Positions 7,353 through 46,387 of a stretch of 64,000 nt of DNA are shown here, in pieces. This DNA comes from an uncultured Planctomycetota bacterium (GTDB lineage Bacteria; JAJVIF01; JAPKYR01), in assembly GCA_964354375.1 (NCBI GenBank), contig CAYGZQ010000003.1, positions 50,040 to 114,039 on the forward strand. The letters run 5' to 3'. Every line of letters begins with the position of its first letter. Within the stretch, counting starts at the first letter, position 1. The translations under genes were made by a program, and so were the position numbers. The notes under the pieces were generated by a model. It worked only from the letters and a program-made list of their open reading frames with translations. It searched no databases and had not been told where the DNA came from.

Positions 7353-7611
7353 GCTTTGCCTCCTTTCTTGTAGAATGCAAACAATGGAAAAAGCGTTACC
7401 TGTTACTGTCGTGCTCGGAGACCTTTCAAAGCACTCCGCCTGACTGCAGCCCTTATCTCAAAGTGCCCACAACGAGGACAAATGGTAGCATTCCCCGAAA
7501 GAAAAATCAACATTTGAATGAGGATTTAATGCAATCTGACACGATAATTTTACATGGGCCGAGACTGCGTTCCCGAGTGGTTCGAGTCTTTCCCCGGCCG
7601 TGAGCCTTCAT

Positions 7612-10284
7612 TCAGTATATGATTACGGCGATCTCGTCAACCCGGGGTCGCGCGTGCGCGTCCGGCGTAGCGCCGCTTCCAAAGCCGATCGCGGCCCTTA
7701 CACGTCCGATACCGTTCGGGTCCAGGTCTGCCAGGCGATACCTCGCCCAGTTGAACGGCCAGCCATATTCATTCCGCCCCCAGCCATATCGATCGTTGTA
7801 CGTGGCGGGGGTCTCGTCGAACCTGACGTTATTGTTGTTGTAGTACTGCGCGGTATAGTACGGGGTACCCTCGATGTAGTCGGCGGGACGGGCCTCACTG
7901 TATTCGTAGTAGTATTGCTGTTTGTTGTGCAGGCTCGGATCGTCGGGGACAGTGCCGACGCTCAGTCGGGCGTAGTTATCCCAGCATTCGTTCATCGGCG
8001 TCACCTGGGCGCCGAAAATCAGCTCTATGTACCATTCCTGCGTCGTTGCGGCTAAGGCCGGATCGGTCAGTATGGGCAGCGGGGGCGATGCGATGACACT
8101 CCAGATGTGCTGCCGCATATAGCCGGAGTCCGGGTCCATCATCCAGCATCCCCCGGATACTGCGCCACCGTATCCGGGTCTCTCGAACTGCCTGTAGAAC
8201 GCCTGCTCATTTCCGCCGTACCCCATGGTCCACGGGAACTTGTCCTGCGAGGCGCCGTCCGGCTCCGCGTTCTCGAGCTCGATGAACGCCCACTCGGTAG
8301 AGCCGACACTCTCGGAGTTCTTGTTACCCGCGACCGACCGGGCTTTCACCATGAAGTAATACGATCCTCCGCTGTTGTATGCGCTCTGCCCGCTCAGCAG
8401 GTTCAGGCATGACCAAACCTCCGGCGGAGTTGTCCCTATCTCTTTCCAGTTTTCCTGGTCGTCGTGAGGATCGCCGTCCCGGTATACGGCCCACTCGGCC
8501 ACAACCCCCGACACCTGGCTTCCGTCCCACCTCACGACTATCGCCGGTATATCGCTAGGGTTATTTATGTACTCGTAAGAATGAAGCGCAGTGCGTTTCA
8601 CCGAAAGCTCCAGATTCAACCCGGACGTGGGGAACTCCGGCGGGTCAGGCAGCTTGACATCCACCATCAGCGAAGCCTCGCTGTATCCGAAGGTGCCGTT
8701 CAGGTCTTTCACTCTGGTATCCACCGCATAGGAGCCCTCATCCGGGAAGCAGATGTCGATAGAGCCGTTCCCGAACGGGTGAATAGCGTCTATGTTTCCC
8801 GTCCCGTCGTTATACTCGGGCGGTGAGTCGTCTCCTATCTCCCAGGCAAAGACAAGGTCTTCGTTCAGGTCCTGGCAGTCGTAGTAGTTCTCGACGTTAT
8901 AGGTATGCACCTCGCCGGCTGTTACCTCGATCGGACCTGTGACAGGCCCCAACTGCGGCGGAGAGTTCGTACCTACATATGGCTCGTACACCTGGTAAAG
9001 GGCCAGGGGCGCATCTTCAGAGCCCTCGAACGATATCGGTAGTTCTTCAGGGCCCACTGTATAGCTTCCGAGGGGGCTGGTTGCCGCCACCAGCACCAGG
9101 GGGTCGTAGGTCTCGAAATTGTCCGGCACCAGCTCGGCGGTGAATGTCGAGATGTGAGCAGAATAGACATCCGAGCCTCCGACCTCCGTGGCGGGCACGA
9201 AATCCACGCCCAGGTCCGGCGATCCGATAAGCACCTGGTCGATCCCACCTGCTCCCTGCCACGTCGAGACATCGATCCTGACCTTCAGCACTCCACCGGA
9301 TACCGGGCAGTCCTCCAACTGCGGGTCGAAATAGAGTGAGTTAGCCTCTTCGTAAATGTCGATGTTAAAGGGCTCGAGGGAGTTGGCCGAGATCGGGAAG
9401 TCATCGAAGGACTGCGGGGGGATGTTGGCGGGTCGTTCCCAGCTTGCATCGACAGCATAATTGAAGACCATGAAGTCCGCGGCGGCAGGACCGAAATTCA
9501 GGGAGTAATGGCGGCGATTGGTGGACGAGCATGAGAAGCGACCCCGTCCAACCAGAACCAGGGGCTCCATGACCTCGTCGTTCGCACCCAGTCCGTCGGC
9601 GAAGTACTTGTAGCCGTTCACCGTGCTCGTGAAATGTGCGGCCTTGTTCGGCTTGCCCAGAAGCCCGTCCTTGTACCCGAGAATCCCGCCGCCGGTGAAT
9701 TCCGTGGGATTCCACCATCGCGTGTAACCGTCCGCGTTCTCGAGCCTGGTCTCGTCCGCTCCGGGCAGGACCAGGTACTCGCCGAGCAGGTAGTTCTCCC
9801 ATGAACCCCTGGAGATGACGATCCCGCGAACGTCGAAGCCGGTGTACTCGGGATGGCCCGGTAGAGGGTGCTGCAGGATTATGTCCAGAGATACTTTGCC
9901 TTCGGGAACATCGACTTCGAGCGTCTTCGGATCATAGGTCAAGTATTTGAGCATGACCGGCTCGAGGAGCGAGACGACATTCAGGTGCGCCGAGCTCTCT
10001 CGAAGGGGCACGATCTCAACCGTCTTCGTTCGGAGGTCCACCTGGAACCGCCACATGCCCCACAGGACGCGGTTTCCGCCCCCGATTTCGCCTTGGGATG
10101 TAAGCCGCATCCGATCGATGCCGGATGATGGATCGGGTACTACCGGGGGTGTTTGTCCGCAGCCCGGAAGCAACAACGCTGCGACCAAGAGGAGCGCTGC
10201 GGTAGCCGGCAGATGATTCGTCTTGGTTCTCATGATTCCTGAGGCCTTCCTGACGGGTTGGGACGCATGGCGACCCTCAAACAA
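7612..10284 (-). CDS. Secreted protein, paralog family member B (conserved N-terminal family domain plus a long C-terminal region)
   Basis: N-terminal hydrophobic signal. Motifs YTGFDVRGIVI, NADGYTRWWNP, NGYKYFADGLGAND, NRRHY, FNYAVDASW match the other three members. Confidence 0.75.
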   Translation of the reverse strand: MFEGRHASQPVRKASGIMRTKTNHLPATAALLLVAALLLPGCGQTPPVVPDPSSGIDRMRLTSQGEIGGGNRVLWGMWRFQVDLRTKTVEIVPLRESSAHLNVVSLLEPVMLKYLTYDPKTLEVDVPEGKVSLDIILQHPLPGHPEYTGFDVRGIVISRGSWENYLLGEYLVLPGADETRLENADGYTRWWNPTEFTGGGILGYKDGLLGKPNKAAHFTSTVNGYKYFADGLGANDEVMEPLVLVGRGRFSCSSTNRRHYSLNFGPAAADFMVFNYAVDASWERPANIPPQSFDDFPISANSLEPFNIDIYEEANSLYFDPQLEDCPVSGGVLKVRIDVSTWQGAGGIDQVLIGSPDLGVDFVPATEVGGSDVYSAHISTFTAELVPDNFETYDPLVLVAATSPLGSYTVGPEELPISFEGSEDAPLALYQVYEPYVGTNSPPQLGPVTGPIEVTAGEVHTYNVENYYDCQDLNEDLVFAWEIGDDSPPEYNDGTGNIDAIHPFGNGSIDICFPDEGSYAVDTRVKDLNGTFGYSEASLMVDVKLPDPPEFPTSGLNLELSVKRTALHSYEYINNPSDIPAIVVRWDGSQVSGVVAEWAVYRDGDPHDDQENWKEIGTTPPEVWSCLNLLSGQSAYNSGGSYYFMVKARSVAGNKNSESVGSTEWAFIELENAEPDGASQDKFPWTMGYGGNEQAFYRQFERPGYGGAVSGGCWMMDPDSGYMRQHIWSVIASPPLPILTDPALAATTQEWYIELIFGAQVTPMNECWDNYARLSVGTVPDDPSLHNKQQYYYEYSEARPADYIEGTPYYTAQYYNNNNVRFDETPATYNDRYGWGRNEYGWPFNWARYRLADLDPNGIGRVRAAIGFGSGATPDAHARPRVDEIAVIIY

Positions 10285-18817: not shown

Positions 18818-21800
18818 CTACCGTCGCTTTTTCTTCTTCGGTTGCTTCCGAAATGAGAATGGGCGTCTTATCCCGTGAACCACTTTGCTGGCGGATTCCG
18901 CAACCGCGCCGCCGATGCTCGTGGCGCGGGATTTCGCCATCTCGAAATTCGCTTTGGCCTGGGCGTTGTGCGGGTCACAATCCAGCGCTTTCGCGAATTC
19001 GCGCGTCGCCTGAGTGTACAGAGCTTCCCGGAAGTAATAGCTTCCGATCGCGACGTGGGCTTCCGCGGAGTTCGGGGCTGTCGCCACGGCGAGCTCGTAT
19101 TCCTCCCTGGCCTTGTCCTTGTTGCCGCGCTCGTAGAGGATATCGGCCATACGAATGTGACCCTCTGCAAAGCCCGGAAACAGGTCGAGCGATTTCTGGC
19201 AGTGCCTCAGCGCGAGCTCGAGTTGGCCCTTGTCCTTGTATGCCTGCGCAAGCTGGAAATTCAGTGAGAAGTTGTCCGGCTTGATCTCCAGACCCTTCTG
19301 GAACTCGGCGATCGCCTTGTCGTACATCCCCTCTTCCATGTAGGCCGTGCCTTTGGTGACGTAGTGGTGTATCACCGGCGCGGCGGGGAATCTGCCGGGA
19401 AAAATCCGCTGTGTTTCGCCGACATCGCCAAACTGGATCACGACGCACGCCATGCTCTCCTTGATCGACGATCCTGCTCCCTTGTACCTGGAGCCTGCGA
19501 GCGAGATGATCCGCTCGCACGCCTCCTGCGTGTCTATCGTGCTTGTGACGCAGTTGCGGATTTCCACGTCCGACAACACGCGCCCGAGGTCCGATGTCCC
19601 CACGATGAGGACGTCTCCCGCCCTCAAATGTCTTTCGGCGGTCTCGACCTGCACCGTCAGCTCTTTCCCCAGCATGCGCTTCTCGTCGCCGCGTTTCATG
19701 AACGTGCGTATCGTGGCGCTGCGAAGCAGGTAGGCGAAGCAGGCCCCGACCTTGGCGAGGTAAAGGCGATTCTGGCTGATGGACGCGATAAGGAGCTCCG
19801 CGCCGATCGATCCTATCTTGTTGAGCCTGAAGGCCTCCTGGTTGACGATCCCGTTTGCCCTCTGCATCGCCGATATCGCGAGCTGGTTCGGGTCCTCAAG
19901 TATGTCGAGCCGGCTCAGAGACGAGTAGGAGTAGACCTGCTCGGCCTCTCTGAGCGCGAGGTCGGCGCACCTGAGGGCCTCATCGACCTGCGGGCTGATC
20001 CCCGATGCGACTCCGAACGCGCCTCGTATGCCGATGCTGGACGGGGGATAGCGCTGCGCAAACGTCATCCTCGATTCTTCCTCAGGTGGGGCCTCTTCCT
20101 CCGTCGACACCATCGCGAGGTAGCTCGAATTCCCGGGGATAAACGACAGGATCGATTCCTCGATCTCCGCCGCTGCTGCGCTTGCCTGGTAATCGTCCAG
20201 ATCCTCGATCAATTCCCCCCAGCTCGAATAGCGGGCCGTGTAGTCCTTTCTGAGCGCGCGCTCCAGAATCCGTCTCAGGTCGACTGATATCCCGGTGGCT
20301 TCGAGCCTTTCTCGCGGGTCCTCGTACACGTGCATCGCCGATATCTCGTGCGGCTCGCCGTGGAAGAGGTCGTGGCCGGTGATCAGGTAGTAGATCACAA
20401 GCGCCCACGCGTACACGTCCGACGCACCGGTCTGCTCGCCCAGCCCCGTTATCTGCTCCGGGCTGAGATACTCCGCGCGGTTGAGTTTCATGGGCGTGTC
20501 GTAGAAAACGTCTCTCTCGAAGCCCGACAGCTTTACTTTGAGCTGGGGTTTGGACACGACAAACGCGCTCTCCGGCGACAGACGCCCGTACACCTCGAAC
20601 CCTTCCGCCCTCAAATAGATCAGGGCCTCCGCGATCAGTCTTCCGACTTCGACCGCGTACCCCTCGCTCATCGGACCGTACTCGGCGACATAGTCGGCCA
20701 GAGTATGCGTCCTCAGCTCGCTAACGAAGAAATACGCGCCCTTATCGCGGCCGTGGTCGAGGACGCGGATAAGTCCCGGATGCTCGTATTCCGCCGCCAG
20801 CTTCATCCGCCCGTTCCAGGCCTCGTCCAGCTCATGGGTTTTGGGCACTCTGTAGAACCAGAGCATTACCGGGGTATCGGTGCCAAGGTGAGTTCCCGCG
20901 TACAGAACCAGGTCCTTCTCGGGTGACAGCCCGTATGCCCCTCCGATGTTCGTGAGCCGCTCTTCGAGACGGTATTTCCCCTTGATCGTCGTTCCCTGGT
21001 CTATCAGATGAATGTTGATGCCGCTGTCGGCGCTGCCGATAAGATGATCGATATCGTCGGCCAGATCGTCGTAACTCTGGTACCGCTGGAGCGGGTCCTT
21101 CTCCAGCATTTTGATCATGATGTCGTGGAAAACGAGGGGAATCTCATATCTTTCCTGGATTTTCGCCAGTGCTTCCGTCTTGATGTGGGCATCGAAGATG
21201 TCCTGGGGAAGGCCGTCGAAGAGGAAGTCGCCGGTCACTAGCCGGAACAGTATTCCCCCGAGAGCGTAGATGTCGGAGCGCTGGTCCACCGGAACATCGT
21301 CCTCGTCCAGCCACACTTCCGGCGACGCATACTGGTAACCCGTCGGCGGAACCCCGTATGTCTTGCGTATGAACCTCTCGGTCTCGTGCAGACGAAAGTC
21401 TTTGAGGAGCACCTCGTCGCCGCGCGGGTTGATGAGGATATGCTCCGGCCTGAGAGCGCCATGGGCCTCCAGAGATCCCTTGGTCTTGAGATAGGAGAGA
21501 GTGGCCAGCACCTTCCTGATAATCCTGAGAGCCTGTTCCGGCGCCAGCTTTTTTCGATCTTCGAGAACCGCAGCAAGAGAGGAGGTAACGTGCGTCTCCA
21601 CAACGTAGTACTGGTTCTTGTGCCATCCCTGGGCGATGAGATCGACCACGTGAGGGTGTTTCAGCTGCGCCCGCCCGTAGAGGTCCTTGTTGATCGCCCT
21701 GATGAAATCCTCTTCCCGCGACAGCTTATCGTCGTAGAATTTGATCGCGACGAACTTGTCGCGGCCGCGCTCGAGGGCCTTGTAGAGGCCGGAAAACTGG

Positions 21801-22687
21801 CCGCTGCCGAGCTCCTCCAGGACCTCGTAGCGGTTGTCCACGATCTCTCCCGCGAGGCTCCCCTCGGGTCGGGCCTTCTTGAAGCTGACCGCCGCCAGGG
21901 CGTACGCGACCGCCTCCTTGAACTCCGTCAGCGATGCGTAGCGCTTGGACGGATTCTTCTGCAGCGCCGCGATGAGAATCTCCTTTACCGCCATCGGAAT
22001 CTGCTTGTAGTACTCGATGTGCGGGGTGGCGTCGACATACACCTGCTGGTACCGGACCTTGGCGACATCGCTGTCATGGAAAAGCGGGAAACCCGTCAGC
22101 ATGTGATAAAGCACCATCCCGATCGAGTAGATGTCGGCCGCCTGCGTGATCTCTCCAATCCTGTGGATTTGCTCGGGTGATACGTACTTCGGGTCCTCCC
22201 ATCTCTTCCGCGGCTCCTCGTCCATCATCTCCATCGCTCGACCGACATACCAGTCGGCAAGCTTCACGTCGGTCAGCTCGTCATTAACAAGTATATTGTT
22301 CGGTTTGATCGCCAGGTGCGGGGGAAGTCCGATGTTGTATCCCGTTTCCAGCGCCTCGATCACTTTCAGCGTAATCGACAAGGCGCTGGTGAGGTCCACG
22401 GTCTCGTTCTCGATCAAATATTCTTTCAGGCTCATCGGCAGGAACTCGGTCGCAATCTTCATTCGGTCCGAATGCCTGCCGACCTCCCATACCGGCACCA
22501 GGTTGGGATGCTTGATCGTGCGAAGATTGTTCGCGACATTCTCGCATTCGTCGATGAACCCCTCGTGGACTCCGTAGGGTTCCTTGAAGATCTTTACGCA
22601 TGCCACGCGCGGGTCTTTGGGGTCTTTCCCCTTGTATACAAGGGCCGCTTCACTGCCTCGTATGCGGTCTACGGGTTCAAAAGGCAT
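18818..22687 (-). CDS. Multidomain signalling scaffold: three tandem kinase-like domains lacking catalytic residues, a degenerate PP2C-like domain and C-terminal TPR repeats
   Basis: Start is at the internal ATG 22687, which has an AGGAG RBS; the ORF-track extension to 23065 lacks support. Catalytic-loop equivalents are HLAIKPNN, HGALRPEH and YGRLSPES (no Asp). DFG equivalents are ADW, DFR and GFE. PP2C-like segment is LYLAKVGACFAYLLR…GDVLIVGTSDLG. TPR examples AYMEEGMYDKAIAEFQKGLEIKPDN. Confidence 0.8.
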   Translation of the reverse strand: MPFEPVDRIRGSEAALVYKGKDPKDPRVACVKIFKEPYGVHEGFIDECENVANNLRTIKHPNLVPVWEVGRHSDRMKIATEFLPMSLKEYLIENETVDLTSALSITLKVIEALETGYNIGLPPHLAIKPNNILVNDELTDVKLADWYVGRAMEMMDEEPRKRWEDPKYVSPEQIHRIGEITQAADIYSIGMVLYHMLTGFPLFHDSDVAKVRYQQVYVDATPHIEYYKQIPMAVKEILIAALQKNPSKRYASLTEFKEAVAYALAAVSFKKARPEGSLAGEIVDNRYEVLEELGSGQFSGLYKALERGRDKFVAIKFYDDKLSREEDFIRAINKDLYGRAQLKHPHVVDLIAQGWHKNQYYVVETHVTSSLAAVLEDRKKLAPEQALRIIRKVLATLSYLKTKGSLEAHGALRPEHILINPRGDEVLLKDFRLHETERFIRKTYGVPPTGYQYASPEVWLDEDDVPVDQRSDIYALGGILFRLVTGDFLFDGLPQDIFDAHIKTEALAKIQERYEIPLVFHDIMIKMLEKDPLQRYQSYDDLADDIDHLIGSADSGINIHLIDQGTTIKGKYRLEERLTNIGGAYGLSPEKDLVLYAGTHLGTDTPVMLWFYRVPKTHELDEAWNGRMKLAAEYEHPGLIRVLDHGRDKGAYFFVSELRTHTLADYVAEYGPMSEGYAVEVGRLIAEALIYLRAEGFEVYGRLSPESAFVVSKPQLKVKLSGFERDVFYDTPMKLNRAEYLSPEQITGLGEQTGASDVYAWALVIYYLITGHDLFHGEPHEISAMHVYEDPRERLEATGISVDLRRILERALRKDYTARYSSWGELIEDLDDYQASAAAAEIEESILSFIPGNSSYLAMVSTEEEAPPEEESRMTFAQRYPPSSIGIRGAFGVASGISPQVDEALRCADLALREAEQVYSYSSLSRLDILEDPNQLAISAMQRANGIVNQEAFRLNKIGSIGAELLIASISQNRLYLAKVGACFAYLLRSATIRTFMKRGDEKRMLGKELTVQVETAERHLRAGDVLIVGTSDLGRVLSDVEIRNCVTSTIDTQEACERIISLAGSRYKGAGSSIKESMACVVIQFGDVGETQRIFPGRFPAAPVIHHYVTKGTAYMEEGMYDKAIAEFQKGLEIKPDNFSLNFQLAQAYKDKGQLELALRHCQKSLDLFPGFAEGHIRMADILYERGNKDKAREEYELAVATAPNSAEAHVAIGSYYFREALYTQATREFAKALDCDPHNAQAKANFEMAKSRATSIGGAVAESASKVVHGIRRPFSFRKQPKKKKRR

Positions 22688-22837
22688 CAAACACTCCTGC
22701 GGAATGGTGTACCCACATCCGTCCGAATGATTATACCATTCAGACGCTTTTGAGGGCGCAAGTGTTCCCGACATATGGCTGTCGCGTAGCATGCGCGGGG
22801 TGGGGCTGTTGAAAAAACCTGTTTCGATGCCGAATCG

Positions 22838-22991
22838 GGTGGCACCCTCAGGCGGAAAGACTGCGCGAGCAGGCTTTCTGCCTGAGGGTGTTCGATCTAT
22901 TAATCCCTCTATCCATGAGGCATTCAGGTGATTGGTCCGGCACCCCCAGTCCGCCGCGGCGGACGAGGACTCGCCTGAGGGTGCCACGCCT
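22838..22991. promoter_or_regulatory. Divergent regulatory region with three copies of the motif GTGGCACCCTCAGGCG, one direct and two inverted
   Basis: Copies at 22838..22855, 22874..22890 (revcomp, 1 mismatch) and 22973..22991 (revcomp, exact 16-mer). The first two form a 17-bp-stem hairpin. Confidence 0.45.
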
Positions 22992-23045
22992 GATATGCCC
23001 TCCTTGCGCGAAATTGCGCTTTTTCGACAGCCCAGGACGCGCATG

Positions 23046-23075
23046 TTGCGCGTTTCCCGAATCATGTGATATACT
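23046..23075 (+). promoter_or_regulatory. Putative sigma70 promoter (TTGCGC…TGaTATACT, extended -10) for the radical SAM gene pair
   Basis: Extended -10 TGATATACT lies 38 nt upstream of the GTG start, with RBS AGGAGAGG. Confidence 0.4.
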
Positions 23076-23113
23076 CTGGTGGCTGTAAAAAAAATTTCAG
23101 GAGAGGAAAGAAA

Positions 23114-24619
23114 GTGACAGGGAATCCTTCGATCCTCTTTGTCGCGTTAGTACATCGCGAGTACTCACCGTTACGGTCTGCCTATTCCGGCATGGGGAAT
23201 ACCTATGAGCTTCTCCCGCACAAGTACGCGGTGCTTTCGCTTGTGGCGTGGCTGAGGGAGAACGGCTGCGACGGTCGCTATGTCTGGATTGAGAGCAACG
23301 ATCGCGAGGCAATAGCCCATGTTGAAAAGGCGATCGAGAGGTACAAGCCGGACGCGATCGGGATGAGCCTCACCACGGAAGAAGTGATCCCGCACTTCAA
23401 GATCGCCGGGGTTCTTAAGGAGAGGTATCCCGACCTGCCGATAATCGTCGGCGGGCCGCATCCGAGCGCACTTCCGGAGCATACGCTCGAGAACTTCCCT
23501 GCCGTCGATTACGTTGCGATAGGGGAGGGGGAGCGGACGCTCACCGAGTGGCTGTTCGCGATCTCTCTCGGGGGCAGAAGATCCAGGATGCGGGACATTC
23601 CCGGCCTGGCTTTTCGCGACGACGACGGCAGCATTGTCGTTACGTGTCCAAGAGAGAAAATCGAGAACATCAATGTCCTCCCGAATCCCGCCTACGATCT
23701 GATCCTCGATCCCTCGGATCCCTCCGAATCCAGACCCTGCGTGCCAATCGTCTTCTCGTACGGATGCCCCTTTTTCTGTACCTTCTGCTCCGCGGATCAC
23801 GGAAACTATCGCTTCGTCAGGCCCGTGAACGCCGTGAACCGGATTGAATGGGCGCAGAAGAAGTTCGGCGTGACCGATTTCGCCTTCTGCGACAGCTTCT
23901 GGCCGCCCTCGGGGAAGTGGCTCGACGAGTTCTGCAAAGAAATCGAAAAACGCCGGATCAGCATCAGGTTCCACTTCGAGACCCGTACGGGCGTCCTGAC
24001 TCCCAAGCAGTTCGAGAGGCTGAGGGATATCGGGGCGCAGGCGATAGCCGTAGGCGTCGAGTCCGGCGACTCCTTCGTCCTGAGGAGAATCAGGAAAGGG
24101 ATCACCGTCGATCAGGCCAAAAAGACATTCGACGCTCTCAACAGTGTCGGGATTTTCGCGCGCGCGCTTTTCATGTTCGGGAACCAGGGAGAAACCCTCG
24201 AGAGCATCCAGGCTTCAATTGACCTCATGCACAGGCTCAATGCTCCGGTTGTCACCCTCAGCGTTTTCCGTCCGCTGCCCGGCTCCGATGATTTCGGCCT
24301 GATTACCGACCGCGAGAAGGACTGGTGGATGCGCGGCGACGAATCCGGTCGATGGTGGGCGGGCGGAACTTATCCCTCCATCTGCGAGCTTTCCGTGGAA
24401 GACCTCCTGCTCCTGGCAAGGGAAGTGGGCCTGCGTTACCCGCTGCGGGCATCGTATGTCCTCCAGCACATCATCGGCGGAAGTCTTTCTATGAAATACC
24501 GCATGGTTGCCGCGCGAATCTTCCTTGCGCATCTCAGACGCTACCTCCTCGGCATTTCGGAGAGGTACGAGTTTCTGCGCACCCTCATTCGGGGCGCAAA
24601 GACGATGCTGAGAAGCTGA
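23114..24619 (+). CDS. B12-binding-domain radical SAM enzyme (class B radical SAM, methyltransferase-like), paralog 1
   Basis: CxxxCxxC cluster GCPFFCTFC. N-terminal cobalamin-binding-like domain (…DAIGMSLTTEEV…IIVGGPHPS…). Start is GTG 23114 with an RBS, or ATG 23066. Confidence 0.8.
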   Translation: MTGNPSILFVALVHREYSPLRSAYSGMGNTYELLPHKYAVLSLVAWLRENGCDGRYVWIESNDREAIAHVEKAIERYKPDAIGMSLTTEEVIPHFKIAGVLKERYPDLPIIVGGPHPSALPEHTLENFPAVDYVAIGEGERTLTEWLFAISLGGRRSRMRDIPGLAFRDDDGSIVVTCPREKIENINVLPNPAYDLILDPSDPSESRPCVPIVFSYGCPFFCTFCSADHGNYRFVRPVNAVNRIEWAQKKFGVTDFAFCDSFWPPSGKWLDEFCKEIEKRRISIRFHFETRTGVLTPKQFERLRDIGAQAIAVGVESGDSFVLRRIRKGITVDQAKKTFDALNSVGIFARALFMFGNQGETLESIQASIDLMHRLNAPVVTLSVFRPLPGSDDFGLITDREKDWWMRGDESGRWWAGGTYPSICELSVEDLLLLAREVGLRYPLRASYVLQHIIGGSLSMKYRMVAARIFLAHLRRYLLGISERYEFLRTLIRGAKTMLRS

Positions 24620-24728
24620 CCATCCCCGGTTTTCCCACAGCATTCCTGCGAATCCTTCTCTTCGCATGCTCGTCATAAGGCTGCCCAGACCCCTGCGTGT
24701 GCGCCGTGCTATACTCGATACTAACCTG

Positions 24729-26222
24729 ATGGACGAGAAGCCCACGATCCTCTTCATCGCGCTCATCCCTCGCGACTACTCGCCCTACTACGCCAAAACC
24801 TACGGCATGGAGCGGTCGTTCGACCTCATGCCGCACAAGTACGCCATTCTCACATTGGTGTCGTGGCTGAGGGAAAACGGCTGCGAGGGGCACTATGTCT
24901 GGGTCGATGGGCCCGACGAGGAAGGCCTCGGGACGATCGACAAGGCCATCGAGCTCTGCAATCCCGATGCCCTCGGGTTCAGCCTCACCACCGAGGAAAT
25001 GGCTCCCCATTACCGGCTTATCGAGCTTCTGAAGCAGAGGCATCCCGACCTTCCGGTGATCATCGGCGGACCACATGTGACGGCGGAGCCCGTGCATTCT
25101 CTCGATCTCTTTCCGCTTGTCGATTTCGTTGCCGTAGGCGAAGGGGAGCGGACTCTGACGGAACTCCTCCACAGGATCGCAGCGGGTCACGGCGATGATG
25201 AATTAACGTCCACCAGGAGCATCGGTTTCCGCGACAGCTCGGGAAGGATCGTCATCACTGCGCCAAGGGAAAAAATCAACGACATCAACATCCTCCCGGA
25301 CCCGGCGTACGATCTGATAACGGAGTCCGACCAGCCCGCCGATCGGCGCTCGGCCTTCCCCATAATCTGCTCCTACGGCTGCTACTTCTTCTGCTCGTTC
25401 TGTTCGGTCGAGCACGGGAACTACCGGTGCGTCGCGCCCGAGAGGGTCGTGGATCGCATATATCGGGCTCAGAGGCAGTACGGGATCGAGTACTTCGCAA
25501 TACGCGACAGCTTCTGGCCGCCGACGCGTGAATGGCTGGACAGGTTCTGCAGCGAAGTCGAGAAGCGTAAGCTGAAAATCCAGTTTCATTTTCAGACCCG
25601 CGCGGGGACGCTCACAGACGAGCACATGAGCCGATTGAAGAAGATCGGCGCGCAGGCGATCGGAATCGGCGTCGAGGCGGGCGATCCCGCCATTCTGAAA
25701 AGCATCCGCAAGGGCATCACGGTGAACATGGCGCGGAAAACCGTCGCGGCCCTCAATCAGGCGGGGATTTTCTCGATCACGTTTTTCATCTTCGGGAACA
25801 AGGGGGAGAATCCCCGGACCATACAGGCGTCGGTCGATCTCGCTCGCGAGATGAACCCATCGATGTCTCTCTTCCATGTCCTCTCTCCGCTTCCCGGCGC
25901 TGAGGCGTTCAAATCGGTTCCGGACGGTCGGAAGGACTGGTGGTTGAACAGCATTTCCATGCCGCCTTCTATCTGCGACGTTGAGCCCGAGGGACTGGGA
26001 CATCTCGCCAATGAGGCGTTTCTCAGGTACCCGCTAAGATGGTCGTACTTCCGCCAGCATGTCGTCGGGGCCAGACTGTCCCCCGATTTCCGCCGTATCG
26101 CAAGGCGCATCTTCTTTGTGCACGTGAGAAAATACATCCTGGGGATTTCCGAGCGCTACGGTCCGACGAGAAATCTCATACGCTGGGTCAAATCGATGCT
26201 GCGCCGGTCCGGTAGCTGCTAG
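24729..26222 (+). CDS. B12-binding-domain radical SAM enzyme, paralog 2
   Basis: GCYFFCSFC motif; collinear with paralog 1 along its whole length; start MDEKPTILFIAL. Confidence 0.8.
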   Translation: MDEKPTILFIALIPRDYSPYYAKTYGMERSFDLMPHKYAILTLVSWLRENGCEGHYVWVDGPDEEGLGTIDKAIELCNPDALGFSLTTEEMAPHYRLIELLKQRHPDLPVIIGGPHVTAEPVHSLDLFPLVDFVAVGEGERTLTELLHRIAAGHGDDELTSTRSIGFRDSSGRIVITAPREKINDINILPDPAYDLITESDQPADRRSAFPIICSYGCYFFCSFCSVEHGNYRCVAPERVVDRIYRAQRQYGIEYFAIRDSFWPPTREWLDRFCSEVEKRKLKIQFHFQTRAGTLTDEHMSRLKKIGAQAIGIGVEAGDPAILKSIRKGITVNMARKTVAALNQAGIFSITFFIFGNKGENPRTIQASVDLAREMNPSMSLFHVLSPLPGAEAFKSVPDGRKDWWLNSISMPPSICDVEPEGLGHLANEAFLRYPLRWSYFRQHVVGARLSPDFRRIARRIFFVHVRKYILGISERYGPTRNLIRWVKSMLRRSGSC

Positions 26223-37906: not shown

Positions 37907-38067
37907 CGCCTTGACTCCTTCTCTTCTGATTCCGCCAAAGAGACTACTGGAAGATACAGATCCCTGGCCAACCAATAATATCATCTTTCTCCTCCGGTTC
38001 ATGAACTAATAGGATTGATTTTCCGCCGATTTTGACCGTTTTCCTGCTACCCTGTACAATCGGCGCT

Positions 38068-38709
38068 ATGCAAGAACCGCAACCGTCCCCGAAAGCCTCC
38101 CTGGGGCCGATCCTGTATCTCGTCCGTCATGGCGAGACTGAATACAACAGGAAAAGGATTTTCCAGGGCCGCAGCGACATCCCTCTCAATGACCGCGGGA
38201 TCGAGCAGGCCTGCGCCCTGAGGGAGCTTTTGGTTCCTGTTCCCCTGACTCGAGCTTTCGTCTCTCCGCTTGACAGGGCGAAGAGAACCGCAGCCATTAT
38301 CTTAGAAGACAGAGAAGTGCCTCAAACGGTTGAGGAAAGGCTCACGGAAATTTTCTTTGGGGAGTGGGAGGGTACGCCTGAGGAGACCGTCAAGCTGACA
38401 TGGGTCGAGGACTACATGGACTATCGGAACGACATGTCCCGCTTCCGTCCCCGGAACGGGGAGAGCGCTTTGGAGGCACAGAGACGTTCGGGCGAATGGT
38501 GGGACGAAATCTCAATCCGGTACTCCTCACCCGATGAACACATCCTGGTCGTCTCTCACCAGTCGCTGAATGCGGTCCTCGCGTGCTATGTCGCAGGGGT
38601 CCATCTCAAGGACGCCTGGCAGGTCTTCAAGACGAAGCCCGGGGAAGTGATGAAAATCATGCCGGGCAGATTCCCCCAGATCAGCCGGATGATTCCCGAT
38701 ATAGGGTAG
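38068..38709 (+). CDS. Histidine phosphatase family protein (phosphoglycerate mutase-like)
   Basis: LVRHGETEYN…RG.EQA catalytic-core motif. ATG 38068 is preferred over TTG 38032. Confidence 0.75.
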   Translation: MQEPQPSPKASLGPILYLVRHGETEYNRKRIFQGRSDIPLNDRGIEQACALRELLVPVPLTRAFVSPLDRAKRTAAIILEDREVPQTVEERLTEIFFGEWEGTPEETVKLTWVEDYMDYRNDMSRFRPRNGESALEAQRRSGEWWDEISIRYSSPDEHILVVSHQSLNAVLACYVAGVHLKDAWQVFKTKPGEVMKIMPGRFPQISRMIPDIG

Positions 38710-41805: not shown

Positions 41806-41853
41806 AATGCGTATCCTGCGCATGGCTCTCACTTGTATGTTACAATCCGTTGC

Positions 41854-42573
41854 ATGAAAACCGCTTGCTGCATTGTCGCAGCCGGTCAGGGGAGTCGACT
41901 CGGCGAGGAGTGGGCCGGTACGCCTAAAGCGCTGGTTCCGATCCTCGGACGTGCGATGCTCTATTACTCCCTCCACGCTTTCGACAATGCCGGTCCAATC
42001 GACAGATTCGTCATCGCGGCTCCAGAGGATTCGGTGAAGGTTTTCCGGGAGCAAGCAAGGATATGGGGGTTTTCCCGGCCGTCGGAAGTCGTGGCCGGCG
42101 GCGAGACCCGTGCCCAAAGCGTTCTGAACGCGCTTAGAGAGCTGAAAGCGGACCCTCCGGACATTGTTCTTATTCACGACTGCGCGAGGCCGTGTCTGAC
42201 CTCGGAGATGATATCGGCCCTTTTTCAGGCATCGTCCGGCGGTAAGGCCTGTGTGCTTGGGCATCCGACAGTCGACACGCTCAGGGAGGTCGAGGGCGAC
42301 AGGATCGTGCTCGAGATCGATCGATCCGCCGTCGCGGCCCTGGAGACTCCGCAGCTGTTCCCGTATCAACGGATTCTGGAGCTGCATGAGCAGTCCCAGG
42401 GAGATGAGGAACTGCCCGACGACACCACCTTATTCACTCGCGCGGGCGAATACGTGAAACTTGTTTATCATGAAGGCAGCAACATAAAGGTGACGTATCC
42501 AGAGGACATCGCGGCGGCCGAAGGGATACTCTTCCAGAGGGGCTGGCAGGACGCCGGGGAAGGAGAGGAATAG
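41854..42573 (+). CDS. ispD: 2-C-methyl-D-erythritol 4-phosphate cytidylyltransferase IspD
   Basis: MKTACCIVAAGQGSRLG…PKALVPILGR N-terminal signature, with ispF immediately downstream. Confidence 0.85.
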   Translation: MKTACCIVAAGQGSRLGEEWAGTPKALVPILGRAMLYYSLHAFDNAGPIDRFVIAAPEDSVKVFREQARIWGFSRPSEVVAGGETRAQSVLNALRELKADPPDIVLIHDCARPCLTSEMISALFQASSGGKACVLGHPTVDTLREVEGDRIVLEIDRSAVAALETPQLFPYQRILELHEQSQGDEELPDDTTLFTRAGEYVKLVYHEGSNIKVTYPEDIAAAEGILFQRGWQDAGEGEE

Positions 42574-43575
42574 ATGTCTCCGACCGGACCCGAGAACGCT
42601 GCCTGGCGCGTCGGCATCGGATACGACGTCCACCGGCTTGTCGAGGGCAGAAAGCTCATCCTCGGCGGCGTGAAAATCGCCCATCCCACCGGCCTTCTCG
42701 GACATTCCGATGCGGACGTCCTCGCTCATACCGTGATGAGTGCACTTCTCGGTGCGATGGCCGCGGGAAGCCTTGGCGACCATTTCCCCGACACCGACCC
42801 GCAATACAAAAACATCTCGTCCATCGACCTACTTGAGCGAGTCAGGATCCTCATGGAGGAAAGCGGGTGGGTGCTTGAGAATGTCGATTGTATGGTTATA
42901 TGCGACGCTCCAAGACTTGCTCCACATATTGAGCTCATGAGAATGAACCTTTCGGAGGCTCTGCGTGTTCCAATAGAATGCGTGTCGGTCAAGGCGACCA
43001 GCACCGAGGGGCTTGGATACACCGGGACTGGAGAGGGGATCGCCGCGCAGGCGATCTGCCTTCTGAAAATGCCCGGAGAGGAGACCGAGAAGCCTGCCAA
43101 GGATAAGCGAAAATCCGAGAAAACGAAGAAAAAGCCTCAGATGCCGCCGCCCTTGCCGACGATCCGTCCGGGCGAGCTGGAGGGATGCGTTGCGCAGATA
43201 GACGGCGCATCGTCCGGGAACCCGGGACCGTCCGGTATCGGGATAGTTTTTGAAAATCCCGCCGGACATATGATCGGGAAGCTTGCGGAGTCGATCGGCG
43301 AGCGAACGAACAACCAGGCTGAATACCTGGCCGCCATCAGGGCGGCCGAGATATGCGCGGAGTGGGGGGTCAGGAAGCTTTACATCCTGACCGACAGCGA
43401 ATTGTTGTCGAAGCAGCTGGGTGGTTCATACAGGGTCAAGAATCCGGGGATACTAAGACTGTATAAGCGTCTTTCAGAGATTCTGTCGGGGTTCGAGAAA
43501 TGGAAAGTGAAACATGTGAGCCGTGAGGAGAACAAGGAAGCCGACAGGCTGAGTAGGGCGGCCTTGAAAAAGTAG
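42574..43575 (+). CDS. ispF: Fusion protein: MEcPP synthase IspF (N-terminal) plus RNase HI-like domain (C-terminal), joined by a Lys-rich linker
   Basis: IspF: GIGYDVHRLVEGRKLILGGV…GHSDADVLAHT. RNase H: IDGASSGNPGPSGIGIV (D), TNNQAEYLAAI (E), ILTDSELL (D), ENKEADRLSRAA (D). Linker EKPAKDKRKSEKTKKKPQMPPPLP. Confidence 0.85.
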   Translation: MSPTGPENAAWRVGIGYDVHRLVEGRKLILGGVKIAHPTGLLGHSDADVLAHTVMSALLGAMAAGSLGDHFPDTDPQYKNISSIDLLERVRILMEESGWVLENVDCMVICDAPRLAPHIELMRMNLSEALRVPIECVSVKATSTEGLGYTGTGEGIAAQAICLLKMPGEETEKPAKDKRKSEKTKKKPQMPPPLPTIRPGELEGCVAQIDGASSGNPGPSGIGIVFENPAGHMIGKLAESIGERTNNQAEYLAAIRAAEICAEWGVRKLYILTDSELLSKQLGGSYRVKNPGILRLYKRLSEILSGFEKWKVKHVSREENKEADRLSRAALKK

Positions 43576-43599
43576 GGCGGAAGCATATACTAGCAAGGT

Positions 43600-43997
43600 T
43601 TGGGGAGCAGGCGAGGCGATCGCCGTCGTGGGCCCCGAGATTTTCGAGGGGCGCACGTCGGAGGAAAGTCCGAGCACCGCAGGGCAGGACGCTGGGTAAT
43701 ACCCAGGCGGCGCGAGCCGATGGAAAGTGCAAAGAAACCAGACCGCCCGGGCGGAAGCCCGGGTAAGGGTGTGAAGGTGAGGCAAGAGCTCACCGGCGGC
43801 CTGGCGACAGGTCCGTGCAAGCAAACCCCGTCCGGTGCAAGTCAAATCGGGAATACAGGGCTGCCCGTCCTTTCCCGAGGTAGACGCTGGAGGCAGACGG
43901 TAACGTCTGTCGTAGATGGATGATCGCGAGCCAGGGTCCCGAGCGTTGCGAAGGACCGGGCGGAACAGAACTCGGCTTATCGTCCGCTCCCCTTTCA
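43600..43997 (+). ncRNA. rnpB: RNase P RNA (bacterial type A)
   Basis: GGAGGAAAGTCCGAGCACCGCAGGGCAGG (P4 and surrounding region), GGTAAGGGTGAAGGTG, GCAAGAGCTCACCG and ACAGAACTCGGCTTATCG. The P1 strands GGGGAGCAGGCGA and TCGTCCGCTCCCC define the ends. Confidence 0.88.
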
Positions 43998-44101: not shown

Positions 44102-46387
44102 GTGAATGAAATGCAAAGGCAGATTACTTACTTGCTCGCGGCAGCTTTGACTCTGTCGCTACTTACTTCCTGCGGCGGAGTCGCGTCGAATCCGACATCT
44201 CCGAATTTCAACCAGCCCGGTCAGGGCGGAACGGCCGGCCAGCAGGGAGCCGCAGGGGAACAGACCGGCTTGCCCGGCCTGCCCGGACAGGTGTCCGGCG
44301 GCGGGGCGGCCATGGGTGAGCAGATCCTCGAGGGCACCTATGACACGCTCTGGCCTCAGGGGCTGAGCGCCATGGAAGGCGGTCAGGTGGTTAACGCCGC
44401 GCAGTGCTTCAAGAGCGCTTTGGCACAGGATTCCACAAAGGTCGATGCCGCTCTTGCCTACGCGGTGTCCGACGTCATGCGCGACCATCGAAGGTATTCG
44501 GTCTTCCTGCATCCCGGGGTGGACAAGCTCTTCATGAACACCCCCCTTATCGGACATGCAGAGGTCTTCCCCAATCCCTTCCTGCCCGAGGATTCCTACT
44601 TTCTCAGGCTTGCCGCTCTCGGCTACAGAACCAGGAAACTGGTCCCAATGATGACCTACCCCATACTGGCACCTGTCGATACAGAGCTGTTCTTCACCCC
44701 GGATACATACCTGGCGCTTTCGGGCCTGCGGCAGGAGGGCAATCAGACCGGCACGCAGACCACAATGGGTGGGACCGGTTCAGATGCAGGTGGAAACACT
44801 GTTGCTCCACCCGGTGGAGGGCCACCGCATGGCCCGCAGCCGCCGGCACCGCCACCGCCGGGCGGCGAGTCCACCCAGGGAGTCCACAAGCTGAACCTGG
44901 CTCCCCCCAAGCCCGCTGATGCGAAGCAGGGTCCGGGACCGGGCACCGGGTCCGGATCCGACACGGACCGGGGCGGGAACACCCCACCTGGGGGAACAAT
45001 CGGCGGGCTGGGCTTCGGCCTCGAGGGTCCGGCTGGGCCCCCTAAGGCGCTTCCCGAGAGGGATGAAGCCATTTCTGAACTTGAATGGGAAACGTTGTTG
45101 TCCGAGTACAGGGACGGCGCGTCCCGCGACGGAGCCGACATGTTCCTGTGTGCCAACTTCTACGAAAACCTGAGGACGCTCCACGAGGAAGTCATCGAAC
45201 ACATCACGAATCTGGAGAATGTCCGGTCCGGTGCCGAGGCCGAGGGCTACTCGCTAAGTCTGCCCTTCAACTCGATCGACGGCACCAAGAAAGTGACCAT
45301 GGCGCTCGATGTGGACGACTATCATCTGATCCTTGATTATTTTAAGCTCCTCGATGTCCTGCTCAGCTACGTGGAAGCCTACAATCATGAACTCCAGTAT
45401 ATGCTGCCGACCGATTCAATCGCGGACATGAACGGCGACCAGATTCTCACACCTGACGAGTATCTGCCCGACGCCCCGTTTGGCACTCTCGACCAGGGCG
45501 GCAAAGACACCCTTGGCGGCCTCCTCCCTGCTTTCACCGGTGCGCTCACGATCCTGAACAACGACATGCGTCCGTTACTTCAGGCCACCCAGCTTATCCA
45601 GGCGGGCGATCCTGAGAAGAAGGAAATATTCTATCTGTCGAGCTTCCATCGCAATTACATTCTCATTGAGGAATGGACAGATCTTGTTCAGTCCATCGGT
45701 GAGAAATCCTCCGGCGGTACCGCAATCAAGCTGGCGAGCGGCGCGGACATCGTCGAGGCCGTCGCGGTGTACGATGCTCTCTTCGTCACTCCCCTCGAGG
45801 ACATACGGGGTCCGCTGCCGTCGTACGATTTCGCGACACGGGCGCTGATTACGGATGAAGAGGGGAAATGGAGCAGCGATCCGACATTCGGCGGCTTCTT
45901 CCCCGAGGGTCTGAGCGCTGAGGGGACATACTCGACCGCAGGGCGTTTTTCCGCGGCCGTATACGATGAGCAGATGGGCAGGGCTGTAGGAGACAAGGTA
46001 AACCTCGGTGACCTTAGTGGCGATGTCGGTGAGACCGGGCTGGTGACTGTCAATAACGCTCTCATCAACGAGCTCACCGGGACTCCGTTTGCAGTGTTCG
46101 ACAAGGACGGCGAGGAAGTCGGGACCGGCGCCGTCCGGACTCTGTTCGAGGTGATCCCCCTGTTCGACGTGGCCAAGATCAGCATGATGCTCGCGCCGAT
46201 GATCGGCGGTGGGCCTGAGGGAATGATTCAGGAGGCCACTGGCGCAACCGGCACAAGCGCGCCGGCGGAAGGTGTCGGCCCTGAGCCGACTCCTCCGGCC
46301 GAGGGCGCCGCCGATCAGAACGGCGAAGGAACCGGCGGAAACGGTGAGAAGCCCGTCGATACGGACGGCGAACAGAAGCCCGCTTGA
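44102..46387 (+). CDS. Large hypothetical lipoprotein with G/P-rich low-complexity segments
   Basis: Signal/lipobox MNEMQRQITYLLAAALTLSLLTSCGG; RBS GAGGAAAG. Confidence 0.65.
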   Translation: MNEMQRQITYLLAAALTLSLLTSCGGVASNPTSPNFNQPGQGGTAGQQGAAGEQTGLPGLPGQVSGGGAAMGEQILEGTYDTLWPQGLSAMEGGQVVNAAQCFKSALAQDSTKVDAALAYAVSDVMRDHRRYSVFLHPGVDKLFMNTPLIGHAEVFPNPFLPEDSYFLRLAALGYRTRKLVPMMTYPILAPVDTELFFTPDTYLALSGLRQEGNQTGTQTTMGGTGSDAGGNTVAPPGGGPPHGPQPPAPPPPGGESTQGVHKLNLAPPKPADAKQGPGPGTGSGSDTDRGGNTPPGGTIGGLGFGLEGPAGPPKALPERDEAISELEWETLLSEYRDGASRDGADMFLCANFYENLRTLHEEVIEHITNLENVRSGAEAEGYSLSLPFNSIDGTKKVTMALDVDDYHLILDYFKLLDVLLSYVEAYNHELQYMLPTDSIADMNGDQILTPDEYLPDAPFGTLDQGGKDTLGGLLPAFTGALTILNNDMRPLLQATQLIQAGDPEKKEIFYLSSFHRNYILIEEWTDLVQSIGEKSSGGTAIKLASGADIVEAVAVYDALFVTPLEDIRGPLPSYDFATRALITDEEGKWSSDPTFGGFFPEGLSAEGTYSTAGRFSAAVYDEQMGRAVGDKVNLGDLSGDVGETGLVTVNNALINELTGTPFAVFDKDGEEVGTGAVRTLFEVIPLFDVAKISMMLAPMIGGGPEGMIQEATGATGTSAPAEGVGPEPTPPAEGAADQNGEGTGGNGEKPVDTDGEQKPA

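Follow-up and report, generated by a model that had tools for sequence, protein, structure and literature searches.

Introduction

Proteins that combine an RNase HI domain with a small-molecule metabolic enzyme are known from mycobacteria, where RnhC (Rv2228c, MSMEG_4305) unites RNase HI with a CobC-type acid phosphatase; Streptomyces SCO2299 is another bifunctional RNase HI-CobC acid phosphatase. Here we describe a different combination, encoded by a single open reading frame (ORF) at positions 42574..43575 of a 64,000-nucleotide (nt) stretch of DNA from an uncultured Planctomycetota bacterium (contig CAYGZQ010000003.1 of assembly GCA_964354375.1, positions 50,040 to 114,039 of the forward strand; this whole stretch is hereafter called the window). 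In this protein IspF, the 2-C-methyl-D-erythritol 2,4-cyclodiphosphate (MEcPP) synthase, is joined through a Lys-rich linker to a C-terminal type-1 RNase H domain.

In the case of MSMEG_4305/RnhC, the two domains were found to be functionally dissociable in vivo, the linker was highly variable, and the fixation of the fusion was ascribed to genetic drift (PMC7466739). The rifampicin, oxidative-stress and carotenoid-pigmentation phenotypes of RnhC stem from its phosphatase domain and not from the RNase H domain (bioRxiv 10.1101/2022.11.09.515703). The window protein resembles RnhC in that an RNase HI domain of the same subfamily (Rv2228c N-domain, 3HST, E 1.9e-19) is linked by a variable segment to a small-molecule metabolic enzyme in a lineage-restricted manner. 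The partner, however, is IspF instead of a histidine phosphatase, the order of the domains is reversed with the RNase H at the C-terminus, and the IspF partner is trimeric in solved structures. RnhC has been reported only from Actinomycetales, whereas the IspF-RNase H architecture occurs in several deep lineages. Residues 208-331 of the window protein matched the RnhC-type model PRK07238 over its RNase H half only (86 bits against a cut-off of 326), and Pfam found no His_Phos domain in the ORF.

Three further types of proteins are relevant for the comparison. Monofunctional IspF (YgbB; B. subtilis 5IWX, E. coli 1GX1) has the same fold, the same Zn ligands and the same position after ispD as the window protein, which differs by a C-terminal extension of ~170 amino acids (aa) comprising the linker and the RNase H domain. 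Bifunctional IspDF (C. jejuni 1W55; 8XHU) is likewise a natural fusion involving IspF, but there the partner is the pathway neighbour IspD and is N-terminal, whereas in the window the partner is C-terminal and unrelated to the pathway, and ispD is a separate gene; accordingly, only the IspF half of the IspDF models was matched (NF006899/PRK09382, 201.7 bits against a cut-off of 417). Finally, the stand-alone RNases HI of the Sto/Halo/LC11 type ('ribonuclease HI family protein', PF13456-like, ~130-145 aa) share ~50% identity with the C-terminal domain, have the same DEDD residues and also have no basic protrusion, but, unlike the window protein, they are single-domain.

Results

Domain architecture and catalytic residues

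The ORF, its parts and the adjacent upstream gene were delimited as follows (AF2, AlphaFold2; pLDDT, predicted local distance difference test).

41833..42573, + strand: ispD, 4-diphosphocytidyl-2-C-methyl-D-erythritol (CDP-ME) synthase, a separate gene (Pfam IspD PF01128, E 5.9e-45)
42574..43575, + strand: IspF-linker-RNase HI ORF, uninterrupted, 333 aa plus stop (ATG at 42574, TAG at 43573-43575)
42604..43071, + strand: IspF (MEcPP synthase) domain, aa 11-166 (Pfam, NCBIfam, alignment, AF2 fold)
43072..43143, + strand: disordered polyampholyte tether, aa 167-190 (composition, pLDDT, variable alignment columns)
43144..43185, + strand: N-terminal extension of the RNase H module, aa 191-204 (PPLPxI(K/R)PGE motif)
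43186..43572, + strand: type-1 RNase H catalytic core, aa 205-333 (Pfam, DEDD residues, solved relatives, AF2 model)

A preliminary description of this stretch had called the ORF a single-gene fusion of a complete MEcPP synthase to an RNase H domain with all four active-site carboxylates, connected by a Lys-rich linker and preceded immediately by a separate ispD. The present analysis bears out each of these points. The ORF is uninterrupted, and its ATG directly abuts the TAG stop codon of ispD, with a Shine-Dalgarno-like sequence (GGAGAGG) lying within the last ispD codons. The IspF half matched YgbB/IspF (PF02542) over aa 12-164, scoring 211 bits where 26.7 are required (E 1.4e-62) and covering profile positions 2-154 of 155, and it exceeded the NCBIfam cut-off for TIGR00151 ispF (198.6 versus 116.45 bits). 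Its best sequence match was B. subtilis IspF (5IWX, 180.8 bits), and the Zn ligands and the GHSDADV motif of the two proteins matched up in the alignment. These residues (D18, H20 and H52, and G43-H44-S45-D46-A47-D48-V49) were invariant in the 33 full-length fusions that we aligned, which are 42-92% identical to the window protein. In E. coli numbering the Zn2+ ligands of IspF are Asp8, His10 and His42.

In the C-terminal half, RVT_3 (PF13456) was matched over aa 209-329 (E 3.1e-19, 69.5 bits against a gathering score of 21.6) and RNase_H (PF00075) over aa 209-330 (E 2.8e-9, 37.7 bits against 25.8). Pairwise alignment placed D210, E250, D274 and D324 opposite the tetrad D10, E48, D70 and D134 of E. 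coli RNase HI; in this alignment only the motifs are to be relied upon. All four carboxylates were invariant among the aligned fusions, as were the motifs around them (DGAS.GNPGP, TNN.AEY, DS and R..N..AD). The basic protrusion (helix alphaC) was missing, a 10-residue gap falling opposite ITQWIHNWKK of the E. coli enzyme, and no hybrid-binding domain was found in the ORF with Pfam. The solved RNases H closest in sequence were Halobacterium RNase HI (4E19), the M. tuberculosis Rv2228c N-domain (3HST), the metagenomic LC11-RNase H1 (3U3G/4H8K) and the S. tokodaii enzyme (2EHG). Judged by sequence, the C-terminal domain belongs to this Sto/Halo/LC11/Rv2228c-N subfamily, with neither the basic protrusion nor the hybrid-binding domain.

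The NCBIfam RNase HI equivalogs were all matched below their cut-offs: RnaseHI_Halo NF041306 with 100.4 of 300 bits, RNAseHI_Thmprot NF041175 with 79 of 140 and PRK00203 with 31.2 of 160. The domain is related to these three equivalogs and a member of none. With respect to the whole protein, every testable feature of IspF and of a Sto-type RNase HI domain was present, and the profile matches place it outside IspDF, the RnhC type and the RNase HI equivalogs. The 64-kb window contained no second ispF or rnh. GC content and GC content at third codon positions (GC3) were even along the fusion gene and its neighbours.

Linker and predicted structure

The linker (aa 167-204, PGEETEKPAKDKRKSEKTKKKPQMPPPLPTIRPGELEG) is 38 aa long and consists of 26% K/R, 18% D/E and 21% P. 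Its first part, the tether of aa 167-190, opens with an acidic patch (EETE) and continues with a Lys-rich run (KDKRKSEKTKKK). Across all 50 fusions the inter-domain segment contained on average 26% K/R, 19% D/E and 14% P, compared to 12, 13 and 4% in the domains. The tether sequence drifts freely while its composition is kept, the alignment columns being variable with in-frame indels. In the second part (aa 191-204) the motif PPLPxI(K/R)PGE is conserved, with L194 and P195 present in at least 90% of the 33 aligned fusions. A similar motif, PLPKI.P, is located at the very N-terminus of those stand-alone RNases H that are closest (P0127, P0129, P0130, P0148 and P0151; MQQIPLPKITPQ...), and we therefore counted aa 191-204 as part of the RNase H module instead of the tether.

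In the AF2 model pLDDT averaged 86.4 and was 90 or higher for 210 of the 333 residues. In the IspF half the block means ranged from 81 to 97 over aa 11-140, falling to 69-81 over aa 141-170. The tether was predicted to be disordered (pLDDT below 50 for aa 170-186), after which pLDDT climbed from 53 to 84 over aa 191-204 and reached block means of 89-98 in the RNase H domain. The modelled IspF half superimposed on many solved IspF structures (Foldseek; template modelling score 0.92-0.95, root-mean-square deviation 1.3-1.6 Å). The secondary structure of the RNase H domain ran b1-b2-b3-aA-b4-aB-aD-b5-aE, again with helix alphaC missing. The predicted template modelling score (pTM) of the complete model was only 0.50, so no fixed interface or orientation between the domains is predicted.

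Reality and age of the fusion in the window clade

With the full-length protein as a query, the same three Pfam matches were found in 37 clusters, formed at 90% identity, of proteins of 280-342 aa that are 60-92% identical to the query. They stem from one uncultivated lineage that was sampled in independent assemblies (NCBI, ENA, JGI and Logan); we refer to these as the window clade. The lowest identity to the window protein within the clade was 70% for the IspF domain and 58% for the RNase H domain. The reading frame was continuous in all 37 clusters across linkers of 35-45 aa, as measured between boundaries given by the profile hidden Markov models.

Six clade loci shared a gene order of secretin, CobC-like His_Phos_1, PIN-TRAM (YacL), ispD, fusion and rnpB, followed by a protein of 730-820 aa that Pfam did not match, then TatD, LspA, RluD and TGT. 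TGT proteins of the lineage were located on contigs that equal the fusion-bearing ones in length, and their nearest named relatives (~52%) belong to Hydrogenedentota and Fimbriimonadales. All contigs of the lineage that were examined carried the fusion with synteny kept, ispD lay directly 5' of it in every related locus with a readable neighbourhood, and neither a split gene nor a fission product was seen in any complete clade locus. The window clade inherited the fusion together with a conserved neighbourhood, and the fusion is old, not recent. The earlier suggestion that it arose recently by the loss of a stop codon is hence abandoned: the fusion is fixed across the 60-92% identical clade and occurs in lineages whose IspD proteins are only ~30% identical.

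We also considered whether ispF and rnhA might have been merged by a sequencing or assembly error. The linker DNA is A-rich and prone to indel errors, and one member of the window's own cluster, P0123 (163 aa; L011, 3001-3492; JGI Ga0315294_10003982), is IspF-only, the sole such member. That call is due to a frameshift close to where the contig ends, at a distance of 60 nt, which mimics a split gene. A stop codon or frameshift removed by the assembly, as the preliminary description had envisaged, is contradicted by the frame that is kept in the 37 clusters of independent assemblies despite their differing linker lengths, as well as in at least 11 distant representatives described below. We regard an artefact as practically negligible.

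Other ways of obtaining separate products from the gene were examined and rejected. Against a dnaX-like programmed frameshift in the A-rich linker, yielding a short IspF-only product, the A-runs are conserved in neither position nor phase and are missing in one clade locus (L009) and most distant fusions; out-of-frame stops lie 2-68 codons away without a pattern. An internal start for a separate RNase H at M190 was dismissed, this residue being not conserved in the 33 aligned fusions. A recent horizontal insertion of rnh was set aside in view of the homogeneous GC and GC3.

Distant fusions and the number of origins

A wider search that covered 1.84 billion cluster representatives recovered at least 11 further full-length fusions at 36-44% identity (P0364, P0365, P0367-P0371, P0381, P0400, P0411 and P0456), all 11 of which carry both Pfam domains. 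The architecture is found in at least five deep lineages, always with IspF first and RNase H second. Among the sequences that carry the fusion are the metagenome-assembled genomes GCA_030614715.1, GCA_048633415.1 and GCA_054402695.1 and the 827-kb JGI contig Ga0366824_1000003. Five of the distant fusions were looked up in their contigs, and four had readable neighbourhoods (L010, L012, L015 and L017), the contig of P0369 (L014) being too short. In all four the fusion fills the canonical ispF slot after ispD, within the widespread (mcsB/clpC/radA/carD)-yacL-ispD-ispF cluster, and the genes 3' of it vary (rnpB, polA or opposite-strand genes). Their IspD proteins are 28-34% identical to that of the window, compared to 53-68% inside the clade.

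For comparison with stand-alone proteins, the domains were cut out and then aligned explicitly. The IspF domain of the window was 63-66% identical to the best stand-alone proteins and 37-54% to the distant fusions; for the RNase H domain the corresponding values were 50-53% and 34-46%. In bootstrapped neighbour-joining trees of the domains (100 replicates), a group of all fusions was recovered in none of the replicates for either domain. In contrast, the window clade was monophyletic in 100 of 100 replicates for RNase H and 96 of 100 for IspF. The first group to join it consisted only of stand-alone proteins in 91 (RNase H) and 66 (IspF) of the 100 replicates and only of fusions in 0 of 100 for both. 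These trees are to be read with the caveats that the domains are short, the method is distance-based, the deep nodes are weak and the stand-alone sample is skewed towards window-like proteins. It is likely, though not proven, that the same two families were fused independently several times and in the same order; we stop short of a firmer statement because of the short domains, the distance method and the biased stand-alone sample.

The preliminary description had proposed that relatives be searched for the same fusion as opposed to separate ispF and rnhA. The fusion did recur. Adjacent but separate genes, which might represent the state before the fusion, were not found: ispF lay within 4 kb in 0 of 80 stand-alone loci of the RNase H subfamily, which were the best-ranking ones among the first 600 pattern matches, and rare cases may therefore be missed.

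Close relatives of the RNase H domain carry other accessory parts, namely HTH-like (helix-turn-helix-like) N-terminal extensions with a K/R-rich segment, or a tandem RNase H, and for this reason the subfamily seems prone to gaining partners. Among the stand-alone relatives, P0172, P0191, P0210 and P0228 (~223 aa) have a conserved N-terminal extension (MLLSIDRVLRLLAEGKSLEKIAELA...) of HTH-like appearance that is followed by the K/R-rich segment, and P0406 (313 aa) is a tandem RNase H-RNase H protein with a Pro/Lys-rich linker. A different partner of IspF was seen in P0449, an IspF-dUTPase fusion of 318 aa.

Genomic surroundings

Downstream of the fusion, two further features were identified.

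43564..43591, + strand: sigma-70-like rnpB promoter, TTGAAA-16 nt-TATACT (10 of 12 matches)
43604..43994, + strand: rnpB, bacterial class A RNase P RNA (245 bits), separated from the fusion stop codon by 28 nt

The -35 element of the rnpB promoter lies within the last Leu-Lys-Lys codons of the fusion, and both the -35 and the -10 elements were invariant in six loci. As the promoter overlaps the final codons, some of the DNA that encodes the conserved ...ALKK C-terminus doubles as the -35 element. Between the fusion and rnpB there is no terminator-like site. The position of rnpB was the same throughout the window clade, as seen in L003 and L006-L009; in L010 it lies 305 nt 3' of the fusion, and in L012, L015 and L017 it was absent 3' of the fusion. 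A functional partnership between rnpB and the RNase H domain was considered and rejected: given its absence in three distant lineages and its own conserved promoter, the arrangement is a lineage-specific synteny.

At the upstream junction (window 42571-42576), the fusion continues in the reading frame of ispD, separated from it by one TAG followed directly by the ATG, so that read-through would give an IspD-IspF-RNase H protein. This junction is not conserved, the two genes in relatives either overlapping by 1-4 nt or being spaced by 18-27 nt. In L015, the locus of the P0400 lineage (NCBI GCA_054402695.1), polA follows the fusion at 7447-10086 after a 364-nt gap in which Rfam matched nothing. 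Primer removal involves Pol I as well as RNase H; the adjacency in L015 could be a coincidence.

A CobC-like histidine phosphatase gene is located at 38032-38709, ~4 kb upstream of the fusion, with synteny kept across the clade. The model that fitted it best was alpha-ribazole phosphatase (TIGR03162), at 143.8 bits and thus short of the cut-off; the phosphatase half of the RNase H/acid phosphatase model was matched as well. This is a curious parallel to RnhC, but phosphatases of this kind form a generic family, and the gene does not lie next to the fusion. The gene at 44102-46387 encodes a protein of 761 aa that neither Pfam nor NCBIfam matched. It has a lipoprotein-like signal (…LTSCGG) at its N-terminus and a long stretch rich in Gly and Pro; a counterpart of 727-823 aa was found directly 3' of rnpB in all clade loci. 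Elsewhere in the window, a 1414-aa protein (18818-23065, - strand) contains three kinase stretches (Pfam Pkinase, PK_Tyr_Ser-Thr, ~aa 140-661) followed by C-terminal TPR repeats, and tandem paralogous B12-binding radical SAM genes encoding 517 and 518 aa lie at 23066-26222.

Discussion

The proposal that we favor, with moderate confidence, is that the fusion is a bifunctional enzyme with two independent activities, joined to the benefit of co-expression, avidity or tethering. It starts from the domain identities, the intact catalytic residues, their conservation, the disordered linker and the genomic position described above. With two separate catalytic domains, such a protein is properly called bifunctional, and the term 'moonlighting' used in the preliminary description does not apply. 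The N-terminal domain would be the housekeeping IspF of the MEP (2-C-methyl-D-erythritol 4-phosphate) pathway, converting 4-diphosphocytidyl-2-C-methyl-D-erythritol 2-phosphate (CDP-ME2P) to MEcPP plus CMP, as would befit a gene at the canonical post-ispD position of a yacL-ispD-ispF cluster. The C-terminal domain would act as a type-1 RNase H that hydrolyses the RNA strand of RNA:DNA hybrids, and the two would work independently of each other, as in mycobacterial RnhC.

Three benefits may follow from such an arrangement. The RNase H would be expressed constitutively and stoichiometrically from an essential operon. In all solved structures IspF is a homotrimer with its active sites at the subunit interfaces, and because of this the fusion would present three RNase H domains on flexible tethers, which may lead to avidity. 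Lastly, the basic tether might provide a non-specific affinity for nucleic acids that the subfamily lacks, having neither the basic protrusion nor a hybrid-binding domain.

Several points weigh against this proposal. We infer both the trimerisation of the fusion and the role of the tether. The linkers of the distant fusions are charged and not consistently basic (net charge -6 to +7, 10 to 68 aa), so the benefit of a basic tether may be limited to the window clade. In addition, the repeated independent fusion, if real, hints at a link more specific than co-expression.

It is possible, if rather doubtful, that the fusion is neutral, i.e. that both domains are active and independent, that joining them brought no advantage, and that the joined gene was fixed by drift after rnh had landed 3' of ispF and a stop codon had been lost. 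Drift is the published conclusion for MSMEG_4305/RnhC, the closest precedent, drawn from a variable linker, unequal rates of the domains and the lack of a fitness cost upon domain removal (PMC7466739). The pattern is the same here, with at least 70% identity to the window within the clade for IspF versus at least 58% for RNase H and a linker of variable sequence, and the missing interdomain interface in the AF2 model agrees with it as well. What drift explains poorly is the recurrence of the fusion in several deep lineages that never grouped together in the bootstrap replicates; the lack of any fission product among the complete clade loci and the conserved linker composition within the clade also speak against it. 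At the other extreme, the two functions might be coupled, with IspF held at the nucleoid or at R-loops by the RNase H domain together with the basic tether, or with the RNase H gated by IspF ligands. This would connect the MEcPP stress signal with hybrid processing, and independent repeated fusion would be the consequence of that functional link. In E. coli, MEcPP attaches to H-NS and keeps it off the DNA (PMC11582573); MEcPP also releases the histone-like Hc1 from DNA in Chlamydia, and it accumulates under oxidative stress (reviewed in PMC11192765). Since MEcPP displaces nucleoid proteins, its production could become linked to the nucleoid or R-loops when IspF is tethered to an enzyme that acts on nucleic acids. 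The metabolic domain of mycobacterial RnhC, moreover, affects carotenoid (isoprenoid) pigmentation and sensitivity to oxidative stress (bioRxiv 10.1101/2022.11.09.515703). That these two families were fused recurrently, and each time in one order, would fit a cooperation of the two activities, but nothing else that was measured supports coupling, and all the evidence for it is circumstantial. The AF2 model predicts no interface (pTM 0.50), the finding of ispF near none of the 80 stand-alone loci indicates no wider genomic association, and the domains of the RnhC precedent are independent. We hold such cooperation to be improbable.

A further alternative concerns the RNase H-like domain itself, which might not be hybrid-specific and might only bind nucleic acid, or cleave double-stranded RNA (dsRNA) or another substrate. 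S. tokodaii RNase HI also cleaves dsRNA; the RNase_H Pfam match of the window domain is modest, RVT_3 being the better one, and all the RNase HI equivalog scores fall below their cut-offs. On the other hand, the DEDD tetrad and its surrounding motifs are invariant, and the closest solved relatives, 4E19, 3HST, 3U3G and 2EHG, are experimentally characterised RNases H. A non-canonical role therefore seems very unlikely to us.

The IspF-RNase H protein is a new domain architecture built from known parts; it is conserved, apparently recurrent and experimentally tractable. We found no description of such a fusion in the literature, in agreement with the preliminary description, which had presented it as apparently undescribed. 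The annotations at the source name these proteins only 'MEcPP synthase', and the RNase H half consequently goes unnoticed. Expectations are tempered by RnhC, a similar fusion that, to judge from the published work, turned out to be functionally uncoupled.

After RnhC, the protein provides a second case of a Sto-type RNase HI joined to a small-molecule enzyme, and this one apparently has more than one origin, so that the argument of drift versus function made for RnhC becomes testable in an independent system. It also offers a natural experiment on how RNases H that have no basic protrusion obtain affinity for their substrate, possibly through oligomeric display combined with a basic tether. 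Coupling, if true, would physically and directly link MEcPP stress signalling to the processing of R-loops and hybrids and to genome maintenance. Unless the architecture is recognised, reconstructions of the MEP pathway and censuses of RNases H in these uncultivated lineages will miscount.

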